Source: Candidatus Krumholzibacteriia bacterium
GTDB lineage: Bacteria > Krumholzibacteriota > Krumholzibacteriia > JAJRXK01
Reading direction: 5' to 3'
Length of the DNA: 64,000 bases
Assembly (NCBI GenBank): GCA_041484665.1
Contig: JBGPIA010000015.1
Coordinates: 1 to 64,000 of the forward strand
In this document: positions 6,162 to 24,433 of the stretch, piece by piece
How positions within the stretch are numbered: position 1 is the first letter of the stretch
Layout of the letters: each line of letters opens with the position of its first letter
Program-made: the position numbers and the translations under genes
Notes under the pieces: generated by a model
Databases searched by the model: none
The model's input: only the letters and a program-made list of their open reading frames with translations
Told to the model about the DNA's origin: nothing

Positions 6162-6379
6162 TAACAATGCCTCCGTACCGTGACGATGTGCGCTCGCCCC
6201 TCGATGCCATTATCCCTCATCAGGGAGGTCATTGCTGTCAGTGTTGTCTTAACGGGTCCGACCCACATCGTCAAGGGATGACTCCTCAGGCTTGTCGGCG
6301 ACCTCGTTGCCATCCAAACGAGGCCGAGACTCCGGGTAGAGCTATGCTCGAAAGGTGCGGATCCAGCATTGAAGGAGGG

Positions 6380-6690
6380 CGGCGCACCCTCCCCGTGGAA
6401 ACCGATCACTTCTACGGGAGGATCAGAATACGCCCTGGAGAAGATTAGCCGGATCACGGTCCGCAGACCAGAGGAAAGCCCGCGGGACGTGCGCACCGAC
6501 TTGCTACGGCAGGGAGCGCGTAAGCTGCTTGCGGAGGCCCATCGAGGGCGAGCTCGAGGACTTCGTGGCTCAGCCCCGCGATCTCCAGGACGGTCATGGC
6601 CGCCAGCGCGTGGTGCGCAACTGTCATCTGCCCACGCGCAAAGTGTCGACGGGCATCGGGGCGGCGTTGGTGCGGCGGCGCGCTGCGGCG
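6380..6690 (+). pseudogene. IS256-family (Mutator) transposase N-terminal remnant
   Basis: DVRTDLLRQGARKLLAEA | IEGELEDFVAQ..GRQRVVRNCHLPTRKVSTGIG with a frameshift near 6540. Matches the IS256 'RVVRNGYLP.R...TGIG' motif. Confidence 0.8.
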
Positions 6691-6841
6691 AACGCCCGCA
6701 TGCGCTCGCCCAGTTCAGTGGGATGCCGAAAGCCGGTCGGCGCGCTGGTGCTCCGATGCAGTCGGACAGCGGCCAACGGCGTGCCAGCTCGATCTTTCGT
6801 CATAAACCTCCCTGCAAGGGCCACGATGCTGGAGATCGCGG

Positions 6842-7996
6842 TCAGACACTCGACGGGCCGGGGCGAGTACTTACGCTCTTGGATACCAGGCTCTCATAGA
6901 TGTCCTCGTACTGGTGGGCGATCTGGCGCACGTCGCACAATCTCCCGATCTTCTCGGCGTTGCGCGCCGCGGGGAAATCACGCCAGGTGGTGAGGATCTC
7001 CAGAATCCTGCCAGCCATCGTGTGGCTATCGCCGACGGAGACCAGGAATCCGTTAATCCCCTCCTCGACCAACTCCGAAACTCCTCCCACGTCGGTGCTG
7101 ACCACTGGGAGCCCGGCCGCCATGTACTCCGCCACCGAATTCGGCATGCTCTCCGACCGCGAGCACAGCACTCCGACATCCATGGTAGACAGCAGTTCCG
7201 GGACGTCGCGTCGGCGGCCGAGGAAAAGGACGCGCTCGGCGACGCCCAAGCTCTGGGCGAGCGCCTTCAGTCTCCCTTCCTCCCCGTCCTCGTCCCCTTC
7301 TCCGATCACCAGGAACCGCACTCCAGGGACAACCTTCACGACCTCCGCAGCGGCATGGAGAAGAGTGCCGATGGACTTCACCGGTCGCAGATTCGCGCAG
7401 ATACCCACGATCTGAGCGCTGGGTGGGATGTTAAGCCGCGCACGGACCCCCTCGGACACGCCCGGATCGACGTTCGAGTACTCATCGACCTCGATAGCGT
7501 TGTAGACGACCCGAATCTTTTCCTCCGGAACCCCCTCCCGCTCCATCACCCATCCCTTTGTGCTCGTGGAGTTGACAACCACCAGGCGCGCAAATCGGTT
7601 CATCACCCTCTGGGTGACAATCTCGGCTCGGGTTTGCCACTCTTGATTACGGCGTGTCGTAATTATGTCCCGGATTCCAGCGGACTTGCCCAGTGCTACC
7701 CCGACCACATTCGACTCCGCAAACTGTGTCTGAAGGATCTGAATCCCGTTGTTGATCCATAACCGTCTCAGTTTGCGCAGCTTCAACACCGTCGATGGGC
7801 TTCGCAGGGAATCCACATGCAGCTGTTCGAGACTGCAGGGCTCTGCCCATTCGCCAGCCAGGTCTGAACTCTTCAACACGTAGAGGAATACGCGAAATCG
7901 CTCGTGCGAGATATTCCGGATCAGGGTAAGCAGCTGCTTTTCCGTGCCACCAGGGGAATGTCCGATGATGTCGATGAGGAAGCCGACGTGGATCAT
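6842..7996 (-). CDS. Glycosyltransferase family 4
   Basis: GGTEKQL N-terminal motif, NLRPVK, and ESMPNSVAEYMAAGLPVVSTDVGG. ATGA overlap with the upstream gene. Confidence 0.92.
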   Translation of the reverse strand: MIHVGFLIDIIGHSPGGTEKQLLTLIRNISHERFRVFLYVLKSSDLAGEWAEPCSLEQLHVDSLRSPSTVLKLRKLRRLWINNGIQILQTQFAESNVVGVALGKSAGIRDIITTRRNQEWQTRAEIVTQRVMNRFARLVVVNSTSTKGWVMEREGVPEEKIRVVYNAIEVDEYSNVDPGVSEGVRARLNIPPSAQIVGICANLRPVKSIGTLLHAAAEVVKVVPGVRFLVIGEGDEDGEEGRLKALAQSLGVAERVLFLGRRRDVPELLSTMDVGVLCSRSESMPNSVAEYMAAGLPVVSTDVGGVSELVEEGINGFLVSVGDSHTMAGRILEILTTWRDFPAARNAEKIGRLCDVRQIAHQYEDIYESLVSKSVSTRPGPSSV

Positions 7997-9201
7997 TGGG
8001 CGGCGCGACATGCGACGGCAGCCCTCCTCGCCGCCTCGGCGATGAACTCGAGGTCCTGGCGCTGTAGCTGTTGATGCACAGGAAGACAAAGAACATTCTT
8101 CGCCAGGTACTCCGCTTCGGGAAACTCAGAGATTGCCAAGCGAGGATGAGGCTGGCGCCCGAAGATATAAGCCTCGACACCAGCAGCCCTCCCGTGGAAG
8201 TCGACCTCGGGGCGGCGATCCACGTAAACGGGAAGACCGAGTGGACAAACCCCGTCGGGCAGATCTCGGAACACGGGAGTCAGCTCAGCGATGGACGCCA
8301 GAGATTGAAGCAGACTCAGGTAGTTCTGGCGGCGCCGATTCCGGATCTGAAACCAGGGCTCCTTTTCAAGGAGAAAGGAGGAGAGAAATGACATGCCTTT
8401 ATCGTAGCCGAATCTTGGGGCGTCGTAGGACGCAGGAGTTCCTCCTTCGCCCCGCACGGGGGTTTCGGCGCGGCTTCCGGTCGGGTGATGACGGCGCGTC
8501 ATACCTAGCTTAGGCCGGATCGCACGGAGCGCCCGGGCAAGGCCGCCGCCTGCCGCGAGTTCGTAGTCCAACGCCGACCTAAGCACCGCTTTGACGATGT
8601 CCAGGTCGAAATGCCGTTGTCCCTCGGCAGGAGGCTCGGGGCTGGATCGATTGAGTAACAACCCGCCCCCATTTGGAAGAAAGACTGTCTTCTGGAAGCT
8701 GAAGGCACCGACATCTCCGAGGGTTCCCACCCAACGCCCATCGGAGAATTGCGAGTAGAGTCCGTGGGCACAGTCCTCGATCAGGTAGATCCCCTTCTCG
8801 CGGCAGGAGTGGAGAAGAGTCTCAATGTGTTGGGGAAAACCGAAGTAGTGTATCACCATGACGGCCTTCGTCGAAGGAGTCATGCGTCGCATGAGGTCCT
8901 CCGCGTCGATCGACATGTCCCTGCGGACTCGGTAGAATGCCACTTGTGCCCCGCCCCTCAGCACGGCCTCAACTTCAACCCCGCAATGATAGGAGGGGAG
9001 CAAGAGCACACTGCCGGGGGGCAGCTTCATCCATCGAACAGCGTGGAAGATGGCTGCCCTTGCCGAGGAGTAGTGGAACATGCCTGGAAGAGATAGTAAG
9101 GGGTCGTCCGTACGCTTCCGCGAGAATGCATATCGGACGGAGAGATCAGGAAACGTCTTGATGTGCCGCGAGGGAGTAGGGGCGGTCAGTTCGGGCGTCA
9201 T
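7993..9201 (-). CDS. DegT/DnrJ/EryC1/StrS-family PLP-dependent aminotransferase-like protein
   Basis: SSARAA, IHYFG, LIEDCAHG, FSFQKT (PLP lysine), GGGL and C-terminal LCLPVHQ. Confidence 0.88.
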   Translation of the reverse strand: MTPELTAPTPSRHIKTFPDLSVRYAFSRKRTDDPLLSLPGMFHYSSARAAIFHAVRWMKLPPGSVLLLPSYHCGVEVEAVLRGGAQVAFYRVRRDMSIDAEDLMRRMTPSTKAVMVIHYFGFPQHIETLLHSCREKGIYLIEDCAHGLYSQFSDGRWVGTLGDVGAFSFQKTVFLPNGGGLLLNRSSPEPPAEGQRHFDLDIVKAVLRSALDYELAAGGGLARALRAIRPKLGMTRRHHPTGSRAETPVRGEGGTPASYDAPRFGYDKGMSFLSSFLLEKEPWFQIRNRRRQNYLSLLQSLASIAELTPVFRDLPDGVCPLGLPVYVDRRPEVDFHGRAAGVEAYIFGRQPHPRLAISEFPEAEYLAKNVLCLPVHQQLQRQDLEFIAEAARRAAVACRAAQ

Positions 9202-9699
9202 GGATCGACGAGTGTCCTGGGGGCAGCGGGACGACGCACGACAGACCGTTTCGTCAGCGGGCAGCCGTGCTGACGGCTCAAGTGCGGGCAGCTCGACACC
9301 TCACGTGCCTCGGGCATTCTATCATGTTCTCGAGGGAGGGCAAACCCTCGTGGACCCACCGATACCAGATGTAGCAGCCCGAGTCCATGCCTCGCGATAT
9401 AGCGACGCCGATCTCGCCCGGTTCTTTCGGCCGAAGCGCGCTCTTGTCTCCCCGCGGGGGTGGGGCGCAAACCTGTCGGCTCTGCCGACTGATGCCCGTG
9501 AGGGGCTGCCGGCGTGGGGAGCACAGCCTGCGGGACCAATCGGATCCGGTTTCTCGTCGAGCGACGAGCCGATCCTACCCTCGATGGACCTGGATCCGGC
9601 CGACCGAGGGCTCGTGCGGCTGATGCCCTAGTTCGGATGAGTCGACGAGCTGACGCCTCTGTTTCGCGCAGGCAGTGGCGTACCCGGCGCGGGGGCGCT

Positions 9700-10190
9700 C
9701 CGGCCGCTCCCGCCGCTGACGGCCAGCGGCATCGTGGAGTGCGCCCACGGGGTCTGCTGCAGCACCGGCCCGGCGTTCCATCTCCCCTCTGCCCCGGCAG
9801 CGCCGACAGGCCACCCGCCTTGGAGCGTAGCGGAGGCAGCTCATCCACCGTCCCAACCCCAGGTGCCGCCAGTGCCGCGGCGCCTGGCGGTCGTAACCGG
9901 AGGCAGGGCGGCCGCGGCTGCCGCAGCGCGCCTTGCGGCCTCGCGGCCGCACGTCGCCGACGAACCAAGCGCCCACGAAGTAGACGCCGATGATCACCAG
10001 ACCGGTGACACCGAGGAGCTCTCGCACTACAAGAGCGGCGCTCGGGAACCTCCGGATCGGCTACAGGCTTCGACACCCACAGCAGAGCACGGGTCCCGTG
10101 CGCTGCTCACCCCCCAACGACCCCCACCTCCAGCGTCAAGTCAGCCGCCAACTGCCTGCTGGGCACCCACGACATTCCCAAGGAGAGCGC
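9700..10190 (-). pseudogene. ISL3-family transposase N-terminal remnant with left end
   Basis: RELLGV..DVRP..RCG..GYDRQAPRHWRHLGLG..LRYAPRRVACRRC is the ISL3 zinc-finger region. Upstream GCTCTCCTTGGGAATGTCGTGGG resembles an ISL3 terminal IR. Degenerates after ~90 aa. Confidence 0.75.
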
Positions 10191-10374
10191 ATAAATTGCC
10201 CTACCGGCTCCACTTGAATCGGCAGTGCGCGCGCGTTAGGCTAGAGCGAACGCAATTCGAAAGACTCTCCGAGCACCGATAAACGAGACAATCGACGCCT
10301 GCCCGAGCGCCCGGTTCGATTTGCCGCCCAGCGCCTGGCAGGCAACCCAACTCCCACTCCAGAGCGGGTAGTGG

Positions 10375-10980
10375 ATGATACGGTCGCGCAGAGACTATCG
10401 GTTCTACCTCCAGGCGGACAGGCTCGCCTTGCGGATTGACCATGCGAGGCCCCGGTGGTTCCGTGACGAGGAATGGCGCTTCCAGCGCTTGCTGCGCGAG
10501 GTCGAGTTCTACATGAACTGCCGGCAGGCGCTCTGGTGGAAGCCGTACTACTGCTACCTCCGGTGGCGCTATAAGCAGCTCAGCTGGCGGTACGGCTTCA
10601 CGATTCCCCCCAACGTCTTCGGCCCAGGCCTTTCCATCGCGCATCGTGGAACGATCGTGGTCAACGATGAGGCTCGCGTGGGAGCCAACTGTCGCCTGCA
10701 CGTATGCGTGAACATCGGAACGACCGCCGACGCTGGCTCAACGGGCGCACCCCACATCGGCGACAATGTCTACATTGGACCGGGCGCGAAGATCTTTGGC
10801 GACATCGAGATCGCCGACGACATCGTCATCGGCGCGAATGCCGTGGTGAATAAGTCCTTCCAGGAGAAGGCGATCACCATCGCAGGCGTCCCCGCGCGAA
10901 AAATCAGCGACAAAGGCTCCCACAACCTCCTCGTGCGCGCCACCGAGCAGCTCGCCCTGGATGCTCCACGCGGCGGGTAG
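10375..10980 (+). CDS. Hexapeptide-repeat (LbH) O-acetyltransferase, serine-acetyltransferase/WcaB-like
   Basis: GPGLSIAHRGTIVVN..VGANC..PHIGDNVYIGPGAKIFG..IGANAVV..AGVPARKI. Confidence 0.9.
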   Translation: MIRSRRDYRFYLQADRLALRIDHARPRWFRDEEWRFQRLLREVEFYMNCRQALWWKPYYCYLRWRYKQLSWRYGFTIPPNVFGPGLSIAHRGTIVVNDEARVGANCRLHVCVNIGTTADAGSTGAPHIGDNVYIGPGAKIFGDIEIADDIVIGANAVVNKSFQEKAITIAGVPARKISDKGSHNLLVRATEQLALDAPRGG

Positions 10981-11112
10981 CTCAACTCCTTGGCGCAGGA
11001 GCGCCGGGCCACGGTGGGTTGGCGAGTGCCAAGCAACGGATCGGTGGGCGACGACGAAGCCCTCCGCTGCAACCGAACCGCTGCTCACCCACGGCAGTTC
11101 TTCAACACTCTG

Positions 11113-12255
11113 CTATTTCTCCACCGGCGATGGAGTACGCCCTTTGCGATTGCGGTACGCCTGTAGTACTTGGTACTTGGCCTTCCGTACGGGTCGATTC
11201 CGGTAGAGCACATCAACAAGTCTCGACTGTCGCAAAGCATAATATGCAGATGCCAACACCATTGACCATCTATCCTTGTACACAATGACTCGCTGACTCC
11301 TCCGGGCGACAGTAGCGAAGCGGCCCTTGTATCCTTCGTCTCCCCTGGCAAAGTCCATCTCTCTCATTCTACGCTCCACTGCGTACTCGAAGAGAAACCT
11401 CAGAATCACCTGACCCGGCGATCGTTTCCCGTATTTGGGGTTGAAGCTCGGTCGGTATAAGTACATGATGTCGTTGAACTCAAAGAAAATACTAAACGCA
11501 AGATATTCTCTATCAAGCGACAGACTGGCGACCTTTACCCATCCTTTCGGGTGCATTCGCCGGACGAAAGACCTACAAAACTCCCGGGCCTCCGGCTTTC
11601 TGTAGACGCTCGGCGTGGCAGTGCCATTCCAGCGTTCAATGTGCTGAGCGAAAAGGTCGTCTAAACGAGCCAGCGCCGTAGCCGTATCTGAATGGACGGT
11701 GAATTCAAGACTTCCTTGGTGTTTGAACCAGTTCACGTAGGTGTTCAGATTCTTCTTGTGGTACATCTTCCTTGCAGCTGCAATGTCGTTGAGACTCATG
11801 GCCGGGCAGGTGTCGCCCTGCTCCAGGCGAAAGGGCCAGCCTCGCGCCCTGAGAGTTGTAGCCAGCGCGGCCGACTGGGAGTTGTTTTGGTGGAGCTGGT
11901 CCAGGAGAACTTTGTTCCACTTGTTACGGTGCGCTCCAAGGGCATTCACGATCTCTTCGAGTACCGCTGGTGTCTCGGGATCGACAAGCAGGTCCGCGTA
12001 GTCGTTTTGGGGGTACCCGATGAACGTCAAAACCTTGCCGGGTTGGACGCAAAGCGGTGCAATCCCGCGGATAGCGCCGTCCGTGCTCGCGACGATCGTG
12101 AGCAGGTGAGCCCGACGGCCCAACGTTTCGAGCCAGGAGAGCAGCCATTCGAAAGACATGTAGGGCGGAGCGTTAGGATACCTCCTCAGCAGCAGTTCCC
12201 ACGGCTCTTGAAGCTCCCGGAAGGTTTCGATGCTCTCGATGATCTCTATATCCAT
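11113..12255 (-). CDS. GNAT-family acetyltransferase (CelD/BcsL-like, Acetyltransf_6)
   Basis: ATG with GGAGG-region RBS context. W..L..PYMSFEWL, GIAPL, DYADLL, 'RSPGQVIL..MDFARGDEGYKGRF'. Confidence 0.88.
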   Translation of the reverse strand: MDIEIIESIETFRELQEPWELLLRRYPNAPPYMSFEWLLSWLETLGRRAHLLTIVASTDGAIRGIAPLCVQPGKVLTFIGYPQNDYADLLVDPETPAVLEEIVNALGAHRNKWNKVLLDQLHQNNSQSAALATTLRARGWPFRLEQGDTCPAMSLNDIAAARKMYHKKNLNTYVNWFKHQGSLEFTVHSDTATALARLDDLFAQHIERWNGTATPSVYRKPEAREFCRSFVRRMHPKGWVKVASLSLDREYLAFSIFFEFNDIMYLYRPSFNPKYGKRSPGQVILRFLFEYAVERRMREMDFARGDEGYKGRFATVARRSQRVIVYKDRWSMVLASAYYALRQSRLVDVLYRNRPVRKAKYQVLQAYRNRKGRTPSPVEK

Positions 12256-12480
12256 GGAGGTCCCTTGCGCTTCCTATGTACGTCCGTCTATGAGCAGAGG
12301 GTGCGGCGACGCGGTCAGACCCGTTGCGGGGGTCGGCGCGGGGAGAGCGCGCGGCCCGTGGAGAATGGCAGTAGCGTCGCTGTTGTGTGGCGTGGAGGTC
12401 AAGAGCTTGAATCCTGGCCGCAGGCGTCCACTGTCATGAGCGTGCGTGGTGAGTGCTCCGTCGGCTGGCCGGATAGGCAG

Positions 12481-13533
12481 TCAGTTCCAGATCCCAGCCG
12501 TGCGTAGAGCATCGCCGACCTTCATCGACCAGGGTACGACGCCGGCCACCGTCATCACAAAGTCCGCGAAGGACTGCCCATTCAGGACTCCGACGCGCTT
12601 GAGCCCATAGACGTCCGAGCGAGCGTCATTGAATCCAGCTACGGTCGTGAGCGCACACATGTGGCCGACTTCCTGCACGATGTCCCTGGTTCGCGCGTCG
12701 AAGTCGCCGCGTGCTCCGTTGGGATAGCAGAAGAGCGGGCAGGGCGCGCCCGTGCGCTCCTCGATGACGCGCTTGGCGACGCTCAGCTCCTCGCGCACGA
12801 CCTCCGGCGTGCACCGGGAGAGGATGAAATGGGAGACCGTGTGATTCCCGAAGGAGACGAGGCCGGTCCCGCGCATCTCCTCGATCTCTGACCACTCCAA
12901 TGGCTGGTAGATCGCCGGAATCTCCGGCGCTGTGAGCAGCGAGCACGCCAGCCGATCCTCGATCGCCTCCACAATGGCTGCCCGCTGCTCCTGCGGGATG
13001 CTCTTCAGCCTGGCCTTGAGCTGCACGAGGGAACCTCCCCGGGACAGACCGGGGTTGCCGTCGGTCGCGTACTCCGCGCTGAGTGCGGCCAGCGCGTCTG
13101 GAGTGGCGTGGTCGACGGCATACTCGACGCGGTCCGCCCATTGGTGGCGCTTCTCGTCGACGAAGGCCGTAGCCAGGAAGATGGTGGCAGGAACCTGGTA
13201 CTTCCGCAACAGGGGGAAGGCGAGGGTGTAGTTCGATCGGAAGCCGTCGTCCATGGTGACGACGACGGGGTTTGGGGGAAGCGTGCGGCCGTGCAGGTAG
13301 TGATCCATCAGCGTCTCGAGTGAGATGATGCTGAAGTGGTTGCGAAGGTACTCCAAGTGAGCTTGGAACATGTCAACGTGGAGGTGCAGCCCCTGGAAGT
13401 TCTCGACTCCCGTATGGGCCGGGCTGTCCGTGAAGCCGTGGTACATGAGGATGACGATCTTGCGCCGGTTCGCCCACGAGAGCGCCCGCGGAACCTGAAG
13501 CTGCGAAAGAGACCGGTAGAGAAGCTGCCTCAT
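12481..13533 (-). CDS. Polysaccharide deacetylase (NodB/CE4)
   Basis: ILMYHG, TMDDG, GNHTVSH and FCYPNG motifs. Confidence 0.92.
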   Translation of the reverse strand: MRQLLYRSLSQLQVPRALSWANRRKIVILMYHGFTDSPAHTGVENFQGLHLHVDMFQAHLEYLRNHFSIISLETLMDHYLHGRTLPPNPVVVTMDDGFRSNYTLAFPLLRKYQVPATIFLATAFVDEKRHQWADRVEYAVDHATPDALAALSAEYATDGNPGLSRGGSLVQLKARLKSIPQEQRAAIVEAIEDRLACSLLTAPEIPAIYQPLEWSEIEEMRGTGLVSFGNHTVSHFILSRCTPEVVREELSVAKRVIEERTGAPCPLFCYPNGARGDFDARTRDIVQEVGHMCALTTVAGFNDARSDVYGLKRVGVLNGQSFADFVMTVAGVVPWSMKVGDALRTAGIWN

Positions 13534-13594
13534 GAATGCTCGTGGGGGTGGGCCCCAGCGGGCCGAGGGACGGTATCGGCGTTTCCGCCGAAGC

Positions 13595-14782
13595 TCAGTA
13601 TCGGCTCTTGAGGCCACCCCAGGAGGACGTTCCGGTGGGCACCATCTCCGGCGGGCCGAAGACGAAGAACTGTTGCGGAGCGTTCTGATTACGGACTTCG
13701 GTCCTGATCCATGCCGCTGAGATGGTGCCAAGGCGGATGCGAAACTCGTCGCCGATGCCGTTCATGTCATCTCCGCCGTTCGCGAACATCGGTCCGATCA
13801 CGCCGACGAGGGAAGTACCGTCCGGGTTCAGCGAGTGGCCATCGTAGGCCACCGATCCCGCCGGATAGATGAGGGGTGGGGTCTGGAGGATGCCGTCGTA
13901 GTAGAACGTGATCTGGCGATTCGGCCCATCGTAGACCCAAGCGAAATGATGCCATTCGTTCAGGACGATCAACCCGCGACCCCAACGATAGTCGACCATG
14001 CCTCCGCAGGCAGAGCTGTTGTACTGCGCGTCCCAGGACATGTCGCTCGCCTGGGACGCCAGCTGGAAGTAGCATGGATCGGTTTGCAGAACGAAGTCGG
14101 TGCTGTGATTCTCGTGCTTGAGCCACACTCCGAGCGTCCACGTGGTTTGTGCGACTCTGATGGCGCTGGTGTTGACGTTCTTGTTGGCTCCGTAGTGCCA
14201 TCCACTCCCGATCTTGGCCGCCACCAGATCGTTCGAAACCCAGGCGCCACCGGGACGTGCCGCTGCGTGCGCATGCGCCTGATGCGGGCTGGAATCGAGG
14301 AGGGTCCCCACGCCGGGGTCCTGGTCGAAGTGATAGACGACCGCGTAGTCGACCCACGTGTCGGAGGTCGAGGCGGAGACAGCCAGGGGGTTGCCGTAGT
14401 AGAGGTAGAACTGGTTCGACGACTTCGAGAGGGTCTCGGCCCGGACCCAGATCTCCGCCTGCTGGCTGCCCGCGTCGTAGCTCACAATCTCGGCATCCCA
14501 GAGCGTGACTCCATCCCCGCTGGTGAACCGAAGATCGCTTCCGTCGGTCTTGGCCTGCGCGAACACCGCGGGGTGGGCACTGCCATCCAGCCGGACCAGG
14601 AGTGGGAACCGGACGAGCGGTGTGCTTCCTTCGATGGAGTCGGCCTTCGCCGTGAACGGCATGCGGTGCGCCCAGTGATTGTCCAGCCATGATGCCGCCG
14701 AGACTGCGCTGCCCAAGGCGGCGCAGCCCACAAGCGTCGCACCGACGACCCAGGCGGCGGTTCTGACTCGCGCGGTGGGCAT
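13595..14782 (-). CDS. Secreted DUF2341 + LamG-like protein with short C-terminal TSSWGGLKSRY tail
   Basis: ATG 14782 after GAGGAG. Signal peptide (..AVSA|A). DGSDLRFT..EIVSYD..AEIWVRA..YLYYGNP (DUF2341). WHHFAWVYD..FYYDG..DEFRI..WIRTE (LamG). Confidence 0.85.
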   Translation of the reverse strand: MPTARVRTAAWVVGATLVGCAALGSAVSAASWLDNHWAHRMPFTAKADSIEGSTPLVRFPLLVRLDGSAHPAVFAQAKTDGSDLRFTSGDGVTLWDAEIVSYDAGSQQAEIWVRAETLSKSSNQFYLYYGNPLAVSASTSDTWVDYAVVYHFDQDPGVGTLLDSSPHQAHAHAAARPGGAWVSNDLVAAKIGSGWHYGANKNVNTSAIRVAQTTWTLGVWLKHENHSTDFVLQTDPCYFQLASQASDMSWDAQYNSSACGGMVDYRWGRGLIVLNEWHHFAWVYDGPNRQITFYYDGILQTPPLIYPAGSVAYDGHSLNPDGTSLVGVIGPMFANGGDDMNGIGDEFRIRLGTISAAWIRTEVRNQNAPQQFFVFGPPEMVPTGTSSWGGLKSRY

Positions 14783-14962
14783 GGCTCTCTTCTCCTCTCG
14801 GCGATCCGCTCTCGCGGGCGCCTGCAGGCGGGGCGAATATAGCGGAACACCGGATCCCGCAGCAATCGATGGCCCGGATCGTGCGATCCCCTGGGGACGC
14901 GCGCGCTCGGTCGTGCGTCCCGGCCCGGGCGGGCACGCGGGGCCCGGCATCCTCAGCGCGAC

Positions 14963-14977
14963 GCACGAGTCGTGCCA
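14963..14977 (-). promoter_or_regulatory. Putative sigma54 (-24/-12) promoter
   Basis: Minus strand TGGCACGACTCGTGC (GG-N10-GC), about 180 nt upstream of the 14782 start. Confidence 0.5.
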
Positions 14978-15163
14978 TGCTAGACTCCGCGGGCGCTCCC
15001 GCAAGGGGGCAGCAACCCCGGAGATTGGCCTGCGATGGTTCGGTCTACCCGGTTGCCGAGCAGGGCGCCCGCAGCCTCCGGCTCGCGCGTCGTGGATCAG
15101 GGCCCGGCTCGCGCGAAGTGAACGCCGCAACGTGGACCTGCTCCTGCAGCGTGGGGAATTGCG

Positions 15164-17056
15164 ATGTGCGGGATCTGTGGCTTTGCCGGTGAACGCGCTC
15201 GCCTTTCGGCCGCCGATTTGGCGCGCATGAACAGCTCGCTCATCCACCGCGGGCCCGATGACGAGGGCCAGTTGGTCGAGCCCGGCGTCGGGCTGGCCAT
15301 GAGGCGCCTGAGTATCCTCGATCTGGAGGGGGGCCACCAGCCCATCTCCAATGAGGACGGCTCGATCTGGGTCATCTTCAACGGCGAGATCTACAACTAC
15401 CGCGCGCTGCGCGCCGACCTTCAGGCCAAAGGGCACGTGCTCCGGACGCAGAGCGATACGGAGGTGATCGTCCACCTCTACGAGGAGCACGGAAAGGAGC
15501 TGGTCCATCACCTGCGCGGGATGTTCGCCTTTGCCCTGTGGGACCGGCGAGAGCGCAGCCTGCTGCTGGCACGGGACCGGCTCGGGATCAAGCCGCTCTT
15601 CTACTCGTACCACGAGGGCACCCTGCTCTTTGGCTCCGAGATCAAGGCGATCCTCCAGTCCGGCCTCGTCCCCACCGACATCAACTGGCAGGCGGTCGAC
15701 GCGTATCTCACTCTCACCTACATCCCCGCCCCCTACACCATCTACAAGTCCGTGTCGAAGTTGCCGGCGGGCAGCCGGTTGAGCTTCAAGGACGGTCGCT
15801 GCGTCCAAGAGCGCTACTGGGACATCGATCTCACCAGCCGGGACACCGGAGCTTCCGCCGAGGAATGGGAGTCCAGGATCGAGGACAAGCTGTTCGACGC
15901 CGTGAAGTCCCATCTCGTCAGCGACGTCCCGCTGGGCGCTTTCCTCTCGGGAGGAATCGACAGCAGCCTCGTGGTCGCGATGATGTCGAAGGCGCTTGGA
16001 ACACCCGTCGAGACCTTCACCATGGGCTTCGCCGGTAACGGCCTGGGACTGCGCGACGAGCGCCCCTACGCCAGGCTTCTGGGCAGTCGCTACCATGCGG
16101 CCTACAACGAATTCACCGTGGAGCCCCACTTCGAGGACATCCTCGACGAGATCCTGACTGCCTTCGACGAGCCCTTCGCCGACGACTCCATCATTCCCAG
16201 CTACTACATCTCCCAGCTCACGCGTCAGAAGGTCAAGGTTGCGTTGTCGGGCCTGGGCGGCGACGAGCTGTTCGGTGGCTACCATCGTTATCGCGGACTG
16301 CTGTTGAGCAAGCCGTACGGCGTCCTGCCTCGCTTTGTGCGCCGGGGAATCGCCGAAGTCCTCGTCGACCGCTTCCCCGAGCCTTCCGGGGGGAGCGACC
16401 GTATCGACCACGTCAAGCGTTTCGCGCGGTTCGCGGCCCTTCCCCCGGATCAGCGCTATCTCGGTTACGTCTCCTCCCTCGATGTCGCCGGACGCAGGCG
16501 CCTCTATCGCCGCCCGCTGCTCGAGCAGATCGACTTCGAGGCCACCTCGGCGGTGATCACGCAGCCCTTCAATGCATGCGGCTCGGAGGACCTGCTCGAT
16601 CGAGCCTTCTACACCGATCTCATGACCTATCTCCCGGACGACATCCTGGCGCTCTCCGATCGGATGAGCATGTGGCACTCCTTGGAGCTGCGCGTGCCCC
16701 TGATCGATCATGAGCTTGCTGAGCTCGCGGCGAAGATGCCGCCCGAATACAAGGTGCGGCTGCGATCGACGAAGTGGCTCCTGCGGCGCATCGCCCAGCG
16801 GTGGCTACCGAGCGAGATCGTGACTCACCGCAAGCAAGGCTTCGAATCCCCCATGGCCGCTTGGCTTCGCAACGATCTAAGGGAGTATGCGGAGGGCATC
16901 CTCACCGATCCGGCCATCGAGCGTCTGGGCCTGTTCGATCGTCGCGAGATCGCGCGCCTTTTCGACCTGCACTGCAGCGGCCAGCAGAAGAACAACAAGA
17001 TCCTTCTGTCTCTGCTCATTCTTTTCCGATGGATGACCAAGAACGTGGTGCGCTGA
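15164..17056 (+). CDS. asnB: Asparagine synthase (glutamine-hydrolysing)-like amidotransferase
   Basis: MCGICG N-terminal Cys, HRGPD, RRLSILDL, FNGEIYN, FLSGGIDSS, SGLGGDELFGGY and RKQGF. Confidence 0.95.
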   Translation: MCGICGFAGERARLSAADLARMNSSLIHRGPDDEGQLVEPGVGLAMRRLSILDLEGGHQPISNEDGSIWVIFNGEIYNYRALRADLQAKGHVLRTQSDTEVIVHLYEEHGKELVHHLRGMFAFALWDRRERSLLLARDRLGIKPLFYSYHEGTLLFGSEIKAILQSGLVPTDINWQAVDAYLTLTYIPAPYTIYKSVSKLPAGSRLSFKDGRCVQERYWDIDLTSRDTGASAEEWESRIEDKLFDAVKSHLVSDVPLGAFLSGGIDSSLVVAMMSKALGTPVETFTMGFAGNGLGLRDERPYARLLGSRYHAAYNEFTVEPHFEDILDEILTAFDEPFADDSIIPSYYISQLTRQKVKVALSGLGGDELFGGYHRYRGLLLSKPYGVLPRFVRRGIAEVLVDRFPEPSGGSDRIDHVKRFARFAALPPDQRYLGYVSSLDVAGRRRLYRRPLLEQIDFEATSAVITQPFNACGSEDLLDRAFYTDLMTYLPDDILALSDRMSMWHSLELRVPLIDHELAELAAKMPPEYKVRLRSTKWLLRRIAQRWLPSEIVTHRKQGFESPMAAWLRNDLREYAEGILTDPAIERLGLFDRREIARLFDLHCSGQQKNNKILLSLLILFRWMTKNVVR

Positions 17057-17080
17057 GCGGGGCGTCGGCCGCAGGCCGAG

Positions 17081-18244
17081 CTAGCCCACGCGCGGTTGCC
17101 ACAGGACTTGCTTCTGTCCACGCAGGAATCTCACGGTTGCGTGTGCGCAGGAGAGGTTCAAGAGCAGCAGATAGTACGGGCCCGTGGCCAGCGGGAAGCT
17201 GGCGTTCAGCTTGCTCATCACGTACCCGAGCGCAGCCAACAGGTAGAACGTCACCTGGCCAAGGAAGAGCAAACGGAAGCCCGGCCCAGCGGACAACAGC
17301 AAGGCATTCGTCACGAGAGCAACCATCTGCGGTACGAAGGCGCTGTAGCGCAGGACCTTGTGCGAGAGCAGCTGCCAGCTGAACCGGGCGTCCCGCCAGG
17401 GGCTAAGCAGGTGCCGGAGGTCGTAGAGCGCCCAGATCGCGCGCAGCGCCACCCTCACTCTCATGCGGTACTCCTGGCTGGGCGATCCGAGAGCCGGCTC
17501 TCGAAGCACGGCTCTGGGCTCGTAGACCACCCGGTACCCCTGCTCCACGACGCGCAGTGGAAGCACGAAGTCTGGAAGCTGATCCGCGCGCATGGGCTGA
17601 TAGAGGGACTTCCGAACCGCATCGATGCCCCCGTCGACTCCGACCACAGATCCGAACCGCGTCTCCCAAGCCCGCAGCAGATTCTCGTACCGCATGTACG
17701 CGGTGCACCCCTCTCCGGTCACCGAGCCGTCGGGGTTGGTGTAGATCATCTTTCCGGTGACGTAGCCGATCGCCTGGTCGGCGAAGTTGCTGACGATGTG
17801 ACCGATCGCCGGCTTTTCGTAGAGGGAGTTGGCGTCGGCAAACACGAGGATCTCCCCGCGGGCCTGCTCGACGGCGAGATTCAGGCCGGCGGTCTTGCCC
17901 TGGCGCGGCTCCTGCCGGATGAAACGCAGGCGTCCGGCGGACGCAACGACGAGCTCGCGCACGATGTGGTCGGTCGCATCGACGGACTCGTCGGAGATGA
18001 CGATCATGTCCAGCCTGTCGGGCGGATAGTCCGAGTCGAGCTTGTTCGAGATGCTCTCCGCGATGACCCGCTCCTCGTTGTGGGCGACCGTGATGACGGT
18101 GACCAGCGGCTCGTACGCTGCGGCGCCGGGTCGAACGCCAGCCGATCGTCGCGCGAAGAGGAAAAGAAGCGCGGGGTATCCGAGGTAGGTATACGCCAGC
18201 CAGAGGAGCGATAGCGCTAGGAGGAGCTCGCATAGCGTCGTCAT
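17081..18244 (-). CDS. Glycosyltransferase family 2 (membrane, cellulose-synthase-like)
   Basis: N-terminal TM, AHNEE, GKTAGLN, DAN (DxD-like), LPDF, R..R motif and C-terminal TMs. Confidence 0.92.
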   Translation of the reverse strand: MTTLCELLLALSLLWLAYTYLGYPALLFLFARRSAGVRPGAAAYEPLVTVITVAHNEERVIAESISNKLDSDYPPDRLDMIVISDESVDATDHIVRELVVASAGRLRFIRQEPRQGKTAGLNLAVEQARGEILVFADANSLYEKPAIGHIVSNFADQAIGYVTGKMIYTNPDGSVTGEGCTAYMRYENLLRAWETRFGSVVGVDGGIDAVRKSLYQPMRADQLPDFVLPLRVVEQGYRVVYEPRAVLREPALGSPSQEYRMRVRVALRAIWALYDLRHLLSPWRDARFSWQLLSHKVLRYSAFVPQMVALVTNALLLSAGPGFRLLFLGQVTFYLLAALGYVMSKLNASFPLATGPYYLLLLNLSCAHATVRFLRGQKQVLWQPRVG

Positions 18245-18357
18245 CGTCAGCCGTCACCTCGCTTGCGCAGGGATCGCTGGATCGTGTAGCATGGATCATG
18301 CATCCCAGACGCATCGATCTTGCGCAGAGGTCCCGTCCAGGGACCGGAGGCCCCCGT

Positions 18358-19767
18358 ATGGCACGCCCGTTTCGATTCCTCGTGTTCCTCGCCACGCTCT
18401 GCGGCTTCTCGTCGGTGGGCCGCGCGGCGGTGCCATGGTTGAACGTCCATTGGCACCAGCGCCTCGAGATCACGGCGAAACCCGCGCTGATCGATGGCAG
18501 CGAGATCTTCGTCGACTTCGCGCTCCTGCTGAAGCTGAACGGCACCGACCACGCGAGCGTCTTCGCCAACGCCAAGGCCGACGGATCGGATCTCACCGTG
18601 ACGTCCGGCGACGGCATCACGGTGCTGGGTCACGAGATCGTATCCTATGATCGAGTGTCCAAGGGTGCGGAGATCTGGTTCAGGGCCCCGTTCTTCTCCG
18701 GCTCCTACAATCGTTTCTACCTGTACTTCGGAAACCCCGACACCACGATCGTTCGGACACCTGGGGAAGCCTGGACGAACCAACAGCTCGCCGTCTACCA
18801 CTTCTCCGAGGATCCCGGCCAGGGAGTCCTCAAGGACTTCGGTCCCCACAACAACTTCGGGACAACCGGCTCCCCGGGGAACTGGACGAGCGCGGACGTG
18901 GCTGCCGGGCAGATCGGACAGGGTTGGAGGTTCAACGGACAGACGAGCTTCATCGACGGCAGCCGCATCAGCTCGACGGCGGGGAGCTACACCATCAGCG
19001 CCTGGTTCGCCTGCTTCAACCGGAACGTGGATGCGAATTTCGCGTTCGACGCCGACTTCGGGCACGTCTCGGCCAAACGCAATGGCGAGCAGCAATACCC
19101 GGATATCGTCACTGGGAACGGGTTCATCCGGTGGGACCCCGCGCTGCCGGACACGCTGATCCATCACTACGTGTGGACCCTGGACGCCGTCCGTGACAGC
19201 GCACGCTTCTACTTCGATGGGATCGAGCAGGGTCAAAACGTGAACTATGCTCCCAACCCGCCGTACAAGGTCTATACCGGAGGGGGGATCCATGGAAACG
19301 TGGGGATCGCCGGCCCGGTCTTCGAGAACGATCCGCTCGACATGATGGAGGGAATCACCGACGAGTACCACATCTACCAGGGGATCCGCAGCCCCGCGTG
19401 GATCAAGACGGAGTATCGCAACCAGAAGGACCCCGCGAACTTCTTCACGTATCGGCAGGATACGTGGGCCCTGGGCGCCGATCCATTGACCCCGTCGCTG
19501 CTCAAGTTGAACGCCTTCCCCAATCCACTGCGTGGGATGACCGAGATCACGATCGTTGCGGGCCCGGCCGACGTCGAGATCGCCGTGTACGACATCGCCG
19601 GCCACAAGATCCGACTGCTGCGTTCGGGAGCGCTGCCCGAGAGTCCATTCCGCCTGAACTGGGACGGCCGGGACGAAGAGGGTCGGTCCCTGGGCAACGG
19701 CACATACTTCATCCGCGCCTTCAGCAAGGACGGCGTCGCCATCACGAAGGTCGCCCTCATCCGCTGA
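18358..19767 (+). CDS. Secreted DUF2341 + LamG-like protein with C-terminal FlgD-Ig/T9SS-CTD-like domain
   Basis: GGAGG RBS and signal peptide. Paralogous to 13595-14782. Tail AFPNP..VYDIAG..IR.L..WDGRD..G..LGNGTYF..KVALIR. Confidence 0.88.
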   Translation: MARPFRFLVFLATLCGFSSVGRAAVPWLNVHWHQRLEITAKPALIDGSEIFVDFALLLKLNGTDHASVFANAKADGSDLTVTSGDGITVLGHEIVSYDRVSKGAEIWFRAPFFSGSYNRFYLYFGNPDTTIVRTPGEAWTNQQLAVYHFSEDPGQGVLKDFGPHNNFGTTGSPGNWTSADVAAGQIGQGWRFNGQTSFIDGSRISSTAGSYTISAWFACFNRNVDANFAFDADFGHVSAKRNGEQQYPDIVTGNGFIRWDPALPDTLIHHYVWTLDAVRDSARFYFDGIEQGQNVNYAPNPPYKVYTGGGIHGNVGIAGPVFENDPLDMMEGITDEYHIYQGIRSPAWIKTEYRNQKDPANFFTYRQDTWALGADPLTPSLLKLNAFPNPLRGMTEITIVAGPADVEIAVYDIAGHKIRLLRSGALPESPFRLNWDGRDEEGRSLGNGTYFIRAFSKDGVAITKVALIR

Positions 19768-19777
19768 GCCACAGCCG

Positions 19778-20752
19778 TCAGGGCTTCCGGCTCCCTGCCA
19801 TCTCCAGTAGAATGACCTTGAGCATCAGCCCGTACAGGGCCCCCTGGAACGGGGAGCGGGCAAGGCTTTGCCGCAGGCAGGAGCGGGCCTCGGACAGGCG
19901 CCGCGCCTCGACCAGCCCCCAGCAATAGCTCTCGGCGCACCGTTTGACCTTCTTGCGCAACAGTCGCACTAGCGTAGGATCGTCGCGGTACTCGGCGAGC
20001 TGGATTTCAGTCAGCTCCAGCAGGTGCCGCGAATTGCGGAGCCGGTTCGCGGCGTCGTGGATGAGGCTGCGCGGGTGGTTGCGCTTGCGCGAGAGGACAC
20101 GGTCCACGTAGCCCGCGGTGCAGAGGTAGGCAGCCCGGGCGTAGAACTCATCGTCTTCAGCGTAGCAATAGCCCTCGCGAAACGGCCCGGCTCGCTCTGC
20201 CACTTCGCGGCGAAGGGTCAGGCCGCTGGTGTGCATGAAGGCGCCGTGACGGATGATATGGGGAGTGAGCGACTCGGAGAAAAGCCATCCTTCCGGCTCC
20301 ACCTGCCGGTGCGGGATGCTCCGGAAGACGCTCCAGCTATCGACGCCCGAGGCGACCAGCACGCCTGTCTCGTCGAAGATGTCGTAATTGGTGAAGAAAA
20401 GGCCCGCCTCCGGATGCCGCTCGAGGAATGCGAGCGTGGTGGCGAGGCACCCAGGCATCAGGACATCGTCGGCATCGAGGAGCATCAGCAGACGCCCGCG
20501 CGCGCTGGCCATCGCCAGATTCCGCGCGGCGGACGGACCGCGATTGGGCTGACACACGTACCGGACCGCTCCGGCCTCGATGAGCGGGCGCAGCACTTCC
20601 TGGGTGTCGTCGGTCGAGCCGTCGTCCGCGATCACGATCTCCACGCCCGCGACGGCCTGATCGAGGACCGAGGAGACGGCCGCGCCGATGTAGGCAGAGT
20701 AGTTGTAGGTCGGCACGAGGACGGACAAAATCGGTTCGCTGCGGTCCGTCAC
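19778..20752 (-). CDS. Glycosyltransferase family 2
   Basis: SVLVPTYN, DDGSTD, NRGPSAARN, LDADD and ED motifs. GTG start approximate. Confidence 0.92.
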   Translation of the reverse strand: MTDRSEPILSVLVPTYNYSAYIGAAVSSVLDQAVAGVEIVIADDGSTDDTQEVLRPLIEAGAVRYVCQPNRGPSAARNLAMASARGRLLMLLDADDVLMPGCLATTLAFLERHPEAGLFFTNYDIFDETGVLVASGVDSWSVFRSIPHRQVEPEGWLFSESLTPHIIRHGAFMHTSGLTLRREVAERAGPFREGYCYAEDDEFYARAAYLCTAGYVDRVLSRKRNHPRSLIHDAANRLRNSRHLLELTEIQLAEYRDDPTLVRLLRKKVKRCAESYCWGLVEARRLSEARSCLRQSLARSPFQGALYGLMLKVILLEMAGSRKP

Positions 20753-20859
20753 GATGGGGGACCCCCGGGGTGCAGAGGGTAGCGGGTCTCGACGATCGCG
20801 CCGATCCTCGGGGCGGCGCAACCCTGGCGCTGCGCCGTCCCGCCGCAGACGCGACCCCT

Positions 20860-22299
20860 TCAACGCATCAGCAGAACTTTGGTCTGCAGGCTGGCGCGGT
20901 CCCCCGTGGCGCGGACGTAATACGTACCATTCCCGACCGTCGTGCCGCGCTCGTCGCGCCCGTCCCATTGGAGCCGAAGCAGCCTGTCTGCCCGGGACGC
21001 AGGACGAAGGACGCGGACCAGACGCCCCGCGACGTCGTATACGGCGACCCTGATCGTGGGGCTGTCCATCTCCACACCCAGCTCGGCCCAGCCACGGCTC
21101 GGGTTTGGCCAGATGGTGATGCGGCCAACCGCAGGACGCCCACCGTCGCCGGGGGGCCCGACCGCCGTCGAGGTGCCGTTCTCCTGCACCCGGTAGGTGA
21201 AAAACGCTTTCGGGTCGGCTCCGTTGCGATACTCAGTGAGGATGCGATCCGCATCGCGCACGCCCTCGACGATCCGGTACTCGTCAACGACTCCGTCCGA
21301 CAGGTTTAGCGAGTTGTAGAAAGCCGGGCCGGCGATCCCGACGCGGCCCTGGATCGACTCCCCGACATAGACGTGGTACGGAGGGTTCGGTGCGTAGTAC
21401 CCGTGAACCTGCTGCTCGATCCCATCCAGGAAGAAGTGAGCCGTGTCCGCGGCGGCATCCAGCGTCCAGACGTACTGATGAAACAACGTGTCCGCGATTG
21501 CCGGCATCCACGTATAGTACCCCCGCGAGGTCTCGAGCGTCGCGTGCGGAGACCCCACGGTGCGACGCCACGCCACACCCCAGCCGCCGGTCGAGGACTC
21601 GAAGGCTGAAGTTCCCCCTTGGGAGGAGGCCACATTGGAGTACCAGGCGCTGATCGTAAAGCTGCTGTCCGGCGAGCTGATGCTATTGCAGTAGAGCCAG
21701 TCGGTCAGGTTGTCGAAGCGCCACGCCCGGCCGACCTGTCCGATCACCCGATCCGAGCTGGTCCAGCTGCTGCCGGGGCCCACCTGCGCGAAGTTGCTGG
21801 CGGGACCCGAGTCCGGAAGGAACCCGAAGGAGGGATCCTGCTCGAAGTGGTAGACGGCCAGGTGGTCGGCGGGCCACGCGCCCCCGGGCGCAACGGAGAC
21901 GGTCGTGTCCGGGTTGCCGTAATACATGTAGAACACGTTGGCGGTGGTCGAGAGCGCGGCGGCCCGGAACCAGATCTCGGCCGCTCGTCCCACCGGATCG
22001 TAGGACACGATCTCGTGATCCAGCAGCGACGTGCCGTCGCCGGCCGTGAACAGCAGGTCCGATCCGTCCCCTTTGGCCCGGTCGAACACCGTCGACAAGC
22101 TGTCGGAGCTCAGCGTCAGCAGCAGCGTGATGTCCGTGAAGGTTCCCACTCCCGCGATTAGCTCAGGCTTCGCCCGCAGCTCGATCCGGTTGGACCAATT
22201 TCCGTCCAGCCAGTCGGCCGCGCGTGCGATGTGCGGTGCTGTCGGCACCACGCTCAGCGCGCAACAGGCCATCAGGCCGAGCCGAAGCAGTTGTCCCAT
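20860..22299 (-). CDS. Secreted DUF2341 + LamG-like protein with C-terminal FlgD-Ig/T9SS-CTD-like domain
   Basis: Signal peptide (ARA|A), DGSDLLFT..EIVSYD..YMYYGNP. Tail WPNP..VYDVAGRLVR..WDGRD..GTYYVR..KVLLMR. Confidence 0.88.
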   Translation of the reverse strand: MGQLLRLGLMACCALSVVPTAPHIARAADWLDGNWSNRIELRAKPELIAGVGTFTDITLLLTLSSDSLSTVFDRAKGDGSDLLFTAGDGTSLLDHEIVSYDPVGRAAEIWFRAAALSTTANVFYMYYGNPDTTVSVAPGGAWPADHLAVYHFEQDPSFGFLPDSGPASNFAQVGPGSSWTSSDRVIGQVGRAWRFDNLTDWLYCNSISSPDSSFTISAWYSNVASSQGGTSAFESSTGGWGVAWRRTVGSPHATLETSRGYYTWMPAIADTLFHQYVWTLDAAADTAHFFLDGIEQQVHGYYAPNPPYHVYVGESIQGRVGIAGPAFYNSLNLSDGVVDEYRIVEGVRDADRILTEYRNGADPKAFFTYRVQENGTSTAVGPPGDGGRPAVGRITIWPNPSRGWAELGVEMDSPTIRVAVYDVAGRLVRVLRPASRADRLLRLQWDGRDERGTTVGNGTYYVRATGDRASLQTKVLLMR

Positions 22300-22550
22300 G
22301 GCTCTTTCTTGGTTCTCAGGTGGAGCGCCCGGCGAACATGCTGGCGCGTGACGAGCCTCTTCGCGTGATGATCTCCTTCAAGGATAGCACGGCGCCCGCG
22401 GCCGGCCAGAGGAGGCTGGACGAGCTGCACGGTGGCGAGGGAAGCGCCGGAAATCGCGCAGCACGACTCGCCACAACGGGATGCGTACACGCCAGCGTGA
22501 CTTCCGGACGGACGCACGCTCTGCCATGGCGGCGGCAAAGCAATGTCGCG

Positions 22551-23660
22551 CTACTGCCGGCCCCATCGCCGATAGACCGCTGCCAGGCGCTCGAACTGTC
22601 CCGCAAAGGTGCACTCGGTCTTTACGAACCGCTTCGCGGCCAGAGCCATCGCACGACTGCGGGCCGTGTCGGACGCCGCGTCCACGATGGCGTCAACCAG
22701 TGCCGCCTCCCTCCCCGCAGGGACCAGGCGCCCGGTGCTCCCATGCTCGATGATCTCCGGCACGCCGCCGACAGCGGTGGCAACCACGGGGACGTCCAGC
22801 GCCATCGCCTCGAGGACGATGTTCGGGAGACCCTCGGAGAGAGAAGGGTTGATGAGGATGTCAGCGCCCTTGACGCACCCCAGGATATTCCGCTCGAATC
22901 CAGGGCAGAGGATCTTGCGCTGGAGTCCGAGCCGCTGGATGGACGCCCGCACCTTCTCCAGATCGGGCCCGTCACCGAACAGCACGAAGCGCAAGCGCGG
23001 ATCCCGCTGTGAGGCCGTCGCGGCGGCTCGGACCAGACCCTCCTGTCCCTTTTCGCGGCTGAAGCGTCCAGCGGTAACGCACACCACAGCATCCGGCGCG
23101 TAACCGAAACGCTCGCGCAGATCGATGGCCGCAATCTCCGCCAGGCGGTCCGCATCGATCGCGTTCTGCACCACGGTGATCTTGTCGCCGCTGATGAGCA
23201 GCCTGCGGAGCCGCTTTTTCTGGGCCAAGGAGACGGCGATGATGTGATCGGCGAGACGGATCAACGCCCGGTCGATGCCCTGGAACAGATGGACCTTGAG
23301 GTTCGTCTGGGTGTAGCCCCTGGAGAAGGCCAGCCAGCGAGCGGAGGTGTGCCGGACCGCCCTGTAGCCCAGCACCGTCGTGCGATAGTCGTGCGTGCAG
23401 AGAATGTCCACCTCCCTCTCGCGCAGGTAGCGGTGGAGCTGCCGGGCCGCCTGCGGGTCGTATGCGGATCGCACCACGAAGACGTGGGTCGCGATCCCCG
23501 CCTCTGCGATCCGGTCGAGGAACTCTGGCCTGCGCCCGCCTTCGGTGAACGAGGCAATGGTCACCTCGAATGGCGAGCCGAGCGCCTCCCGCGCATGGAG
23601 GTGCAATTGCCTCTCGGGACCGCCGTAGAAGTCGGAGGCACGGACGTGGAGGATCCTCAT
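22551..23660 (-). CDS. Glycosyltransferase family 4
   Basis: GGPERQ, GRFSREKG and EGLPNIVLEAMALDVPVVATAVGG. Confidence 0.93.
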   Translation of the reverse strand: MRILHVRASDFYGGPERQLHLHAREALGSPFEVTIASFTEGGRRPEFLDRIAEAGIATHVFVVRSAYDPQAARQLHRYLREREVDILCTHDYRTTVLGYRAVRHTSARWLAFSRGYTQTNLKVHLFQGIDRALIRLADHIIAVSLAQKKRLRRLLISGDKITVVQNAIDADRLAEIAAIDLRERFGYAPDAVVCVTAGRFSREKGQEGLVRAAATASQRDPRLRFVLFGDGPDLEKVRASIQRLGLQRKILCPGFERNILGCVKGADILINPSLSEGLPNIVLEAMALDVPVVATAVGGVPEIIEHGSTGRLVPAGREAALVDAIVDAASDTARSRAMALAAKRFVKTECTFAGQFERLAAVYRRWGRQ

Positions 23661-23701
23661 GGTGTCTGGGTGTCCCGAGCGGGGCCGCGCCTGCGGTGGC
23701 A

Positions 23702-24433
23702 CTACACCGGCTTGCGGGCGACGACGACCACGCCGCCCCCCAGGCCGATCCTCTCCTTCGCGCTGCGGAGGTTCTCCGCCGAGAAGAGGCGCAAGAGGAC
23801 TGCATTGATCTTGTAGGAGTTCACGAGACGCAGAATGCCCAGGTCCCCCGTGGGGGCGACCGTGGTCATGGAGAGAAGCTCGAAGCGCCGCGCGAGCAGC
23901 CGTCTGAGGTCCCGCCGCGAGAGCCAATTGCGGACCTGGCCGGGCTCGACCGGTCGAACGTCGCGGCTGCGTTCGTAGACGAACTTGTTGACCGTCGTGA
24001 GGATGAGATGGGCCCCCGGCTTCATCAAAGAAGCGACCCGCTCGACGAAACGGGGTTGATCCTCCACGTAGAAGAGCGTCTCCACGCAGACCACGATGTC
24101 GAATGAGGACGCGGCGAAGCCGTGCTGGTAGAAGTCGCCGGCGATGAGCTCTGCGTCGATGTTCCGGGTGCGCGCCACGGCAATGGCGGAGGGAGAGAGA
24201 TCGATCGCGGTGACCTTGCCGAATGCGCCGAGCTTCTCCGTCAGCCAGCCCGTGCCACATCCCACTTCCAGAATGCGCGGTGCGTGGAGATCCAGGGTTC
24301 GCAGGATGTCGAGCACCCGCACGCCGCGGTCTCGAATCCCGTCGGGAATCTCCTCGAAGGCGCCTGCGCGATGCTCGACGTTCCACCGGTCGTAGAACGC
24401 CGTTTGCTCTTCGATCGTGGGCTTGTCTTGCAT
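23702..24433 (-). CDS. Class I SAM-dependent methyltransferase
   Basis: ILEVGCGTG, IDLS, FDIV and MKPGAHL. GGAGGA RBS. Confidence 0.92.
   Translation of the reverse strand: MQDKPTIEEQTAFYDRWNVEHRAGAFEEIPDGIRDRGVRVLDILRTLDLHAPRILEVGCGTGWLTEKLGAFGKVTAIDLSPSAIAVARTRNIDAELIAGDFYQHGFAASSFDIVVCVETLFYVEDQPRFVERVASLMKPGAHLILTTVNKFVYERSRDVRPVEPGQVRNWLSRRDLRRLLARRFELLSMTTVAPTGDLGILRLVNSYKINAVLLRLFSAENLRSAKERIGLGGGVVVVARKPV

Follow-up and report, generated by a model that had tools for sequence, protein, structure and literature searches.

The window analysed in this study, a stretch of 64,000 nucleotides of contig JBGPIA010000015.1 from a Candidatus Krumholzibacteriia bacterium, encodes three paralogous DUF2341-LamG proteins with different C-terminal ends, one of them a short tail and the others an FlgD-Ig domain similar to the type A C-terminal domain (CTD) of the T9SS (type IX secretion system). 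The three open reading frames (ORFs) reported in the initial annotation were confirmed and are common from the signal peptide to the stretch ..TE.RN...P..FF, with identities to the 395-aa protein of 39% and 34% for the other two paralogues in the alignment. DUF2341 and Laminin_G_3 were matched in the three proteins (Pfam), and FlgD_ig above the Pfam cut-off only in the 469- and 479-aa paralogues, as the initial annotation had claimed. The 395-aa protein gave zero NCBIfam matches and is indeed the short form, stopping 22 residues past the FF, in ..VPTGTSSWGGLKSRY. Coordinates and scores are shown in Table 1.

The AlphaFold2 model of the 395-aa protein (13 sequences) had a mean pLDDT of 78.6 and a confident body, and the fold search with this model returned LamG jelly roll matches. 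The neurotoxin binding domains, sialidases and domain 4 of the arabinanase AbnA among them are generic LamG jelly rolls (9–18% identity, TM about 0.35), and toxin kinship was rejected. The MAFFT alignment of the WG of the tail with the WDG of the Ig domain was dismissed as chance.

The genome (5.45 Mb, 93.65% complete) was scanned with the regular expression proposed for the tail, obtaining 43 matches in 141,271 six-frame stop-to-stop ORFs, every one located 9–17 aa before the stop. It was found in the last 20 aa of 38 of the 4,061 called genes and in none of 1.48 million internal residues. A set of 75 ORFs, selected by score, a K at position +5 and an aromatic residue at +8, so that the invariance of this K inside the set is by construction, yielded the consensus [VI]P-x4-[ST][WF]G-x-[VLI]K-x-x-[YF], followed by 0–14 residues. 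The set was kept fixed because an iterated hidden Markov model (HMM) of the tail slid into short spurious ORFs by round 3. Counts on 64 genes omit the 11 of 75 ORFs lacking a gene call, several of them fragments.

Signal peptides, called by a heuristic, were enriched as anticipated (48 of 64 tail genes against 921 of 3,514 others, p 1e-15), and the absence of a transmembrane (TM) helix from the tail was borne out, none of the 64 proteins having a TM segment after residue 50. No tail protein exceeded 500 aa (0/64); the median of the Ig-tailed cargo was 659. CBM20, DUF4114, CHRD, alginate lyase and FlgD_ig were the named cargos among 25 scanned, 19 of which had no Pfam match. The codons of the tail are mixed across genes, indicating selection at protein level, and a DNA cassette is unlikely, with a third-position identity of 0.45 against a background of 0.38. 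In this genome the motif is neither rare nor non-terminal, it is linked to signal peptides and it matched no sorting-signal model in Pfam or NCBIfam, the points on which the initial annotation had made its proposal depend. The tail is a genuine protein motif, portable and terminal, carried by small signal-peptide proteins and alternating with a T9SS-type domain. At C26:12322-13748 a gene with a tailed paralogue ends early, with the tail in a different frame that overlaps it; a frameshift or an assembly error is the likely cause.

Tail and Ig domain had been read in the initial annotation as modular, alternative endings. They do alternate in many families; their mutual exclusivity is not absolute, since one of the 75 ORFs has both. 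This sole double case, of 151 aa (L007:2011-2466; C29:20010-20465), consists of a signal peptide, an FlgD-Ig domain and the short tail. The FlgD-Ig domain was detected in 225 ORFs, finishing no more than 10 aa from the stop in 215 of them. The 68 tail cargos of at least 40 aa constitute 46 families, and 15 have an Ig-tailed homologue in the same genome. In the closest pair (C1:915835 and C18:9000, 72% identical) homology extends up to a common V-P, where the sequences fork. Database homologues of the window protein likewise end in the tail (P0002, P0003) or in the Ig domain (P0004, P0005), and in the tree the tailed P0003 clusters among the Ig forms (87/88 support, unstarred). Of the 64 tail genes, 26 lie no more than two genes away from an Ig-tailed gene, against a mean of 9.7 (maximum 16) for random genes.

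The strict DNA pattern was present in 207 of the phylum's 208 genomes, with copy numbers of 0–81 (0–2 for the reversed control), and all 23 tails from 20 regions of other genomes were placed 9–14 residues before the stop. A profile of 43 tail sequences retrieved 980 library representatives with E 0.001 or better; among the best 150 of these 980, from which the details were taken, 146 have a copy no more than 20 residues from the end. In the DUF4114 family, the best 120 of 548 homologues showed the tail expression in 114 cases and a variant form in four more, with the K conserved at 98% while neighbouring positions vary, which, together with the mixed codons, argues for protein-level selection. 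The AlphaFold2 model of this family (113 sequences) has a helix exactly at W246–Y253, with a pLDDT of about 65 against about 90 for the body. N-cap residues occupy tail position 0 in 73 of the 75 ORFs.

None of 43 tails was matched in the Pfam/NCBIfam scan, and every score of the Atlas search with the last 30 residues was below 0.8. When PDB sequences were searched with the tail profile, the two matches obtained (E 1.1 and 1.4) were at chance level and were rejected; that with E 1.1 is gp15 of PDB 8fwe, a phage neck protein with a tail-like end. No account of the tag was found in the literature searched, in which subscription journals are thinly covered and the supplements of T9SS surveys are out of scope, and a term search of the accessible part of bioRxiv 10.1101/2023.06.07.544157 had no match.

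Multiple copies of the tail were observed in 17 of the best 150 of the 980 library matches, and 16 of these 17 belong to one NTF2-like, mostly lipoprotein family, in which each domain has its copy, an additional one follows the signal peptide, or as many as four stand in tandem. The motif is therefore also internal, N-terminal or tandem in this family, and for the internal and N-terminal copies a docking peptide is a better fit than a processed terminus. SnoaL_2/DUF4440 matches were weak and below cut-off in 3 of 15 family members, and the genome's own NTF2-like copies, of which one is tailed and two are the core members on C9, had no match to these families. The multi-copy family is homologous (hhalign 98.2%, E 5e-14) to a lipoprotein, here named lipoprotein A, of a three-gene module at C9:87315-90738 (L085:5316-8739). 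This unannotated module, on a contig other than that of the window and in a housekeeping region before secDF, encodes a 703-aa predicted outer-membrane beta-barrel and, behind it, the NTF2-like lipoproteins A and B.

The barrel was found as one copy in 70 of 71 genomes (21 of 29 by single-sequence search) and lipoprotein A, also as one copy each, in 67 of 71. Of 30 lipoprotein A loci, 28 showed the barrel upstream and 29 showed lipoprotein B downstream. All 30 lipoprotein A sequences finish in T/S-[LWM]-G-x-[LR]-R-G-x-[LF], a tail-like helix in register with the tail. Core lipoprotein B is tail-less (16/16); of 26 ORFs of accessory paralogues, 12 have the strict tail and about 8 more a degenerate one, judged by eye; in genome G191 (L135) the core module is followed by three tailed paralogues. 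Neither barrel nor lipoprotein A had a Pfam, NCBIfam or PDB match. Kinship of the barrel with SprA (probability 1.5% against the C-terminal part of SprA) or with a 1105-aa protein of the PorU-PorV operon (probability 0.1%) was rejected.

A T9SS is encoded in the genome, with SprA (TIGR04189, 499; cut-off 200), PorU (NF033707, 495; cut-off 420) and eight PorV-family barrels above cut-off, and across the phylum SprA was present in each of 71 genomes and the PorV family in each of 128. The PorV-family paralogues (on C3, C12, C17, C1, C4 and C14) mostly lie directly behind a large Ig-tailed gene, which suggests dedicated shuttle-substrate pairs; some have long C-terminal extensions, and C2:112539 is an orphan PorV-family gene. 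The PorU-PorV operon has four further genes, conserved in all loci of sufficient length to reveal them (24 of 35). At L002:867-18554 (C2:434866-452553), PorU-PorV is followed by an M6-like Ig-tailed protein, two DUF5683-like proteins, an NHL lipoprotein, the unannotated 1105-aa protein and an Omp85 paralogue, the last beyond the range of the 35-locus conservation count. One protein of the operon resembles DUF5683 clusters. No match was obtained for the GldM, GldN and PorP (PF11751) families in this 94%-complete genome, with the controls for PorP and for one further search also silent, and the T9SS is possibly motor-less.

The cleavage site of PorU is X/(GSA)(VLI) (PMC4560394). Such a site precedes 25 of the 75 tails and occurs in 85 of 286 control windows, without enrichment in this genome; it was found in 11 of 23 tails of other genomes and at -5/-4 in 28 of 146 library matches. 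Of the 75 tails here, 63 have proline at the would-be P1' position, as do 89 of 146 library matches. Two complex-prediction runs of core PorV (alignment of 34 rows) and the tail (43 rows) scored 0.00 without folded controls, and count neither way.

Table 1. Position and characteristics of the features identified in the window.
Feature	Position	Strand	Basis or remarks
DUF2341-LamG protein, signal peptide and short tail, 395 aa	13595..14782	-	Alignment, Pfam, AlphaFold2
Short tail, residues V381-Y395; predicted helix 389-394, pLDDT <50	13598..13642	-	Sequence, AlphaFold2
469-aa DUF2341-LamG paralogue ending in an FlgD-Ig/T9SS type A-like domain	18358..19767	+	
FlgD-Ig/Por_Secre_tail-like domain, ~residues 387-469	19516..19764	+	PF13860 30 bits (cut-off 27); TIGR04183 23.5 bits (cut-off 23)
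479-aa DUF2341-LamG paralogue ending in an FlgD-Ig/T9SS type A-like domain	20860..22299	-	
FlgD-Ig domain, ~residues 396-479	20863..21114	-	PF13860 34 bits; TIGR04183 18.9 bits, below cut-off
Second tail gene, 195 aa, signal peptide, variant tail ..SLGTIKARY.., without Pfam match	60780..61367	+	
1083-aa exported protein with FlgD-Ig tail, immediately upstream of second tail gene	57436..60687	+	
Surface-polysaccharide-type locus: glycosyltransferases, deacetylase, asparagine-synthase-like amidotransferase, GNATs	5085..24433	.	Context of the three paralogues, outside the tag itself

The homologue search with the protein of the second tail gene of the window returned the query itself as the sole match, and the Rfam scan of the window gave no matches. 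Positions 179-397 hold a fragment that we take to resemble the end of an IstB-type transposition ATPase. At 47384-47830 a peroxiredoxin-like gene is broken into two short ORFs after ..KADTPG, which we presume may reflect an in-frame stop decoded as selenocysteine.

The tail was compared with known sorting systems on the basis of the accessible parts of PMC12618676, PMC4804311, PMC4560394, PMC10202324 and PMC11980579. Like the T9SS type A CTD (TIGR04183/PF18962, here the FlgD_ig-like PF13860), it is placed at the extreme C-terminus of unrelated Sec families, at the same paralogue junction, and the genomes that bear it encode SprA, PorU and PorV. Unlike that domain, whose Ig fold has seven strands and about 100 aa (PMC10202324), the tail has about 15 aa and is a predicted helix, it has no TIGR04183, PF18962 or PF13860 match and, in this genome, no enrichment of a PorU-type site before it, and its cargo is small only. 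Type B (TIGR04131, PorP/SprF) and type C (ChiA) signals are also alternatives beside type A with separate readers (PMC12618676, PMC10202324), but they require 100–235 aa; the tails have no TIGR04131 match, and no shuttle gene was tied to tail genes.

The PEP-CTERM/exosortase, LPXTG, GlyGly-CTERM and MYXO-CTERM tags are likewise short C-terminal tags on many unrelated exported proteins, and the opening V-P of the tail and its polysaccharide-locus context are PEP-CTERM-like. CHRD and DUF4114, both tail cargo here, are common PEP-CTERM cargo. The tripartite signal of these systems combines a motif, a TM helix and a basic cluster (in part PMC11980579); the tail has neither TM helix (0/64) nor basic cluster, and the initial annotation was right in separating it from the LPXTG, PEP-CTERM and GlyGly-CTERM types. 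Exosortase (PF09721) had no match in the 93.65%-complete genome with a positive control, and sortase, rhombosortase and myxosortase were not searched for. Cohesin-dockerin systems resemble the tail as proposed here in having a portable terminal module, non-covalent surface docking and repeats. Dockerins, unlike the tail, are folded calcium-binding domains, and no tail matched dockerin in Pfam (0/43 with any Pfam match).

On these data, the tail is probably an envelope targeting or docking tag. The full reading, in which the tail is a ligand by which cargo docks on a receptor of the envelope, with the module of barrel and NTF2-like lipoproteins as the likeliest receptor, may be correct. The module taken by itself is the leading but tentative candidate for the reader. 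Small proteins would leave by Sec with the tail as a free short helix, in which an S/T cap is followed by W, V, K and Y along one face that may fit a groove. A vacant site would be offered by the tail-less lipoprotein B, and the module, with the tail-like helix end of lipoprotein A, is the leading candidate for the origin of the tag. Docked cargo would then reach or remain at the outer surface, by passage via the barrel, by handover to SprA or by mere holding, and a tail of 15 residues would be a cheap substitute for an Ig domain of 85.

Several data weigh against this proposal. Signal peptides were called by a home-made heuristic whose background is 26%, the tail has a pLDDT below 50 in the model of the window protein, with the helix at 389-394 of low confidence, and the Eisenberg moment of the tail is maximal at 150 degrees rather than 100, because the K sits amid hydrophobic residues. 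Multi-copy proteins score higher and so are over-represented in the best 150 matches. The end of lipoprotein A is statistically weak against the tail (E 0.003; probability 1.3%, E 0.041; at most 4.6 bits with the tail HMM), and its ending xx[GA]x[LRI]R[GA], present in 30 of 30 sequences against 55 of 3,775 control genes, is a pattern derived from those same 30 sequences. Co-occurrence cannot separate the module from the T9SS, since the phylum has no tag-negative genome and the T9SS is equally universal.

It is rather unlikely that the tail is instead a miniature T9SS signal, in spite of several points in agreement with it. The tail substitutes a type A-like domain at the same junction, its genes are near Ig-tailed genes (26 of 64 against a random mean of 9.7), SprA, PorU and the eight PorV-family barrels, some of them orphan, are encoded, and SprA and PorV are universal in the genomes examined. 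Moreover, the linker in other genomes is often [TV]-[AGS]-[VT]-E, resembling X/(GSA)(VLI) (PMC4560394), and orphan type B substrates use a common orphan shuttle (PMC12618676). However, in the accessible sources every described signal is a folded domain spanning at least about 100 aa (PMC12618676, PMC10202324), most tails have proline at the would-be P1' with the PorU-type site unenriched, and GldM, GldN and PorP were unmatched (two controls silent). The internal and N-terminal copies are also hard to square with a terminal signal.

The strict W-G-x-V-K spacing over 46 unrelated families suggests a shaped site, which makes it improbable that no protein reader exists and that the helix sticks to the outer membrane, lipopolysaccharide or surface polysaccharide, or that the lysine is covalently attached. 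Direct binding of this kind would be in accordance with the W, V/L and Y/F residues, the near-invariant K with a basic residue next to it, and the window copies inside a polysaccharide locus; against it, the helix has just about 8 residues and the NTF2-like family has R, H or L in place of the K. A T2SS-like (type II secretion system) or second pilus operon with secretin (C4:203729-213512) ends two genes from one tail gene (region C4:203729-215586), but such proximity concerns 1 of 64 tail genes, and a single secretin was found in 31 of 71 genomes and none in one. The lone secretin is likely of the pilus type, given its distance of 36–39 kb from the best PorV match (four genomes checked), like pilQ here. 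That the tail directs type II secretion, or serves periplasmic quality control or proteolysis as a tag, is hardly probable.

The tag is undescribed in the literature searched, and the candidate reader would make it a new system. In its fullest form, possible but on balance doubtful, this would be a surface-targeting system of Krumholzibacteriota and their kin, in which a universal outer-membrane barrel and two NTF2-like lipoproteins recognise a helix of 15 residues. One lipoprotein's end would have been the source from which this helix was copied to dozens of small exported proteins, in parallel to a motor-less T9SS for large cargo. As a sorting tag, the tail would rank with the shortest C-terminal ones in diderm bacteria and would be, within the literature searched, the first such tag found without a membrane helix and without a folded domain. 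A display tag of 15 residues, paired with a reader of three genes, would also be useful for engineering. The module gives the question of the reader a specific binding candidate, and near-identical paralogues differing only in the tail offer a ready comparison of its function. As the tag is present on 1–2% of the genes here and in nearly all genomes of the phylum, one small profile would annotate many hypothetical surface proteins, and the single-copy, near-universal module is of interest irrespective of the role of the tail.

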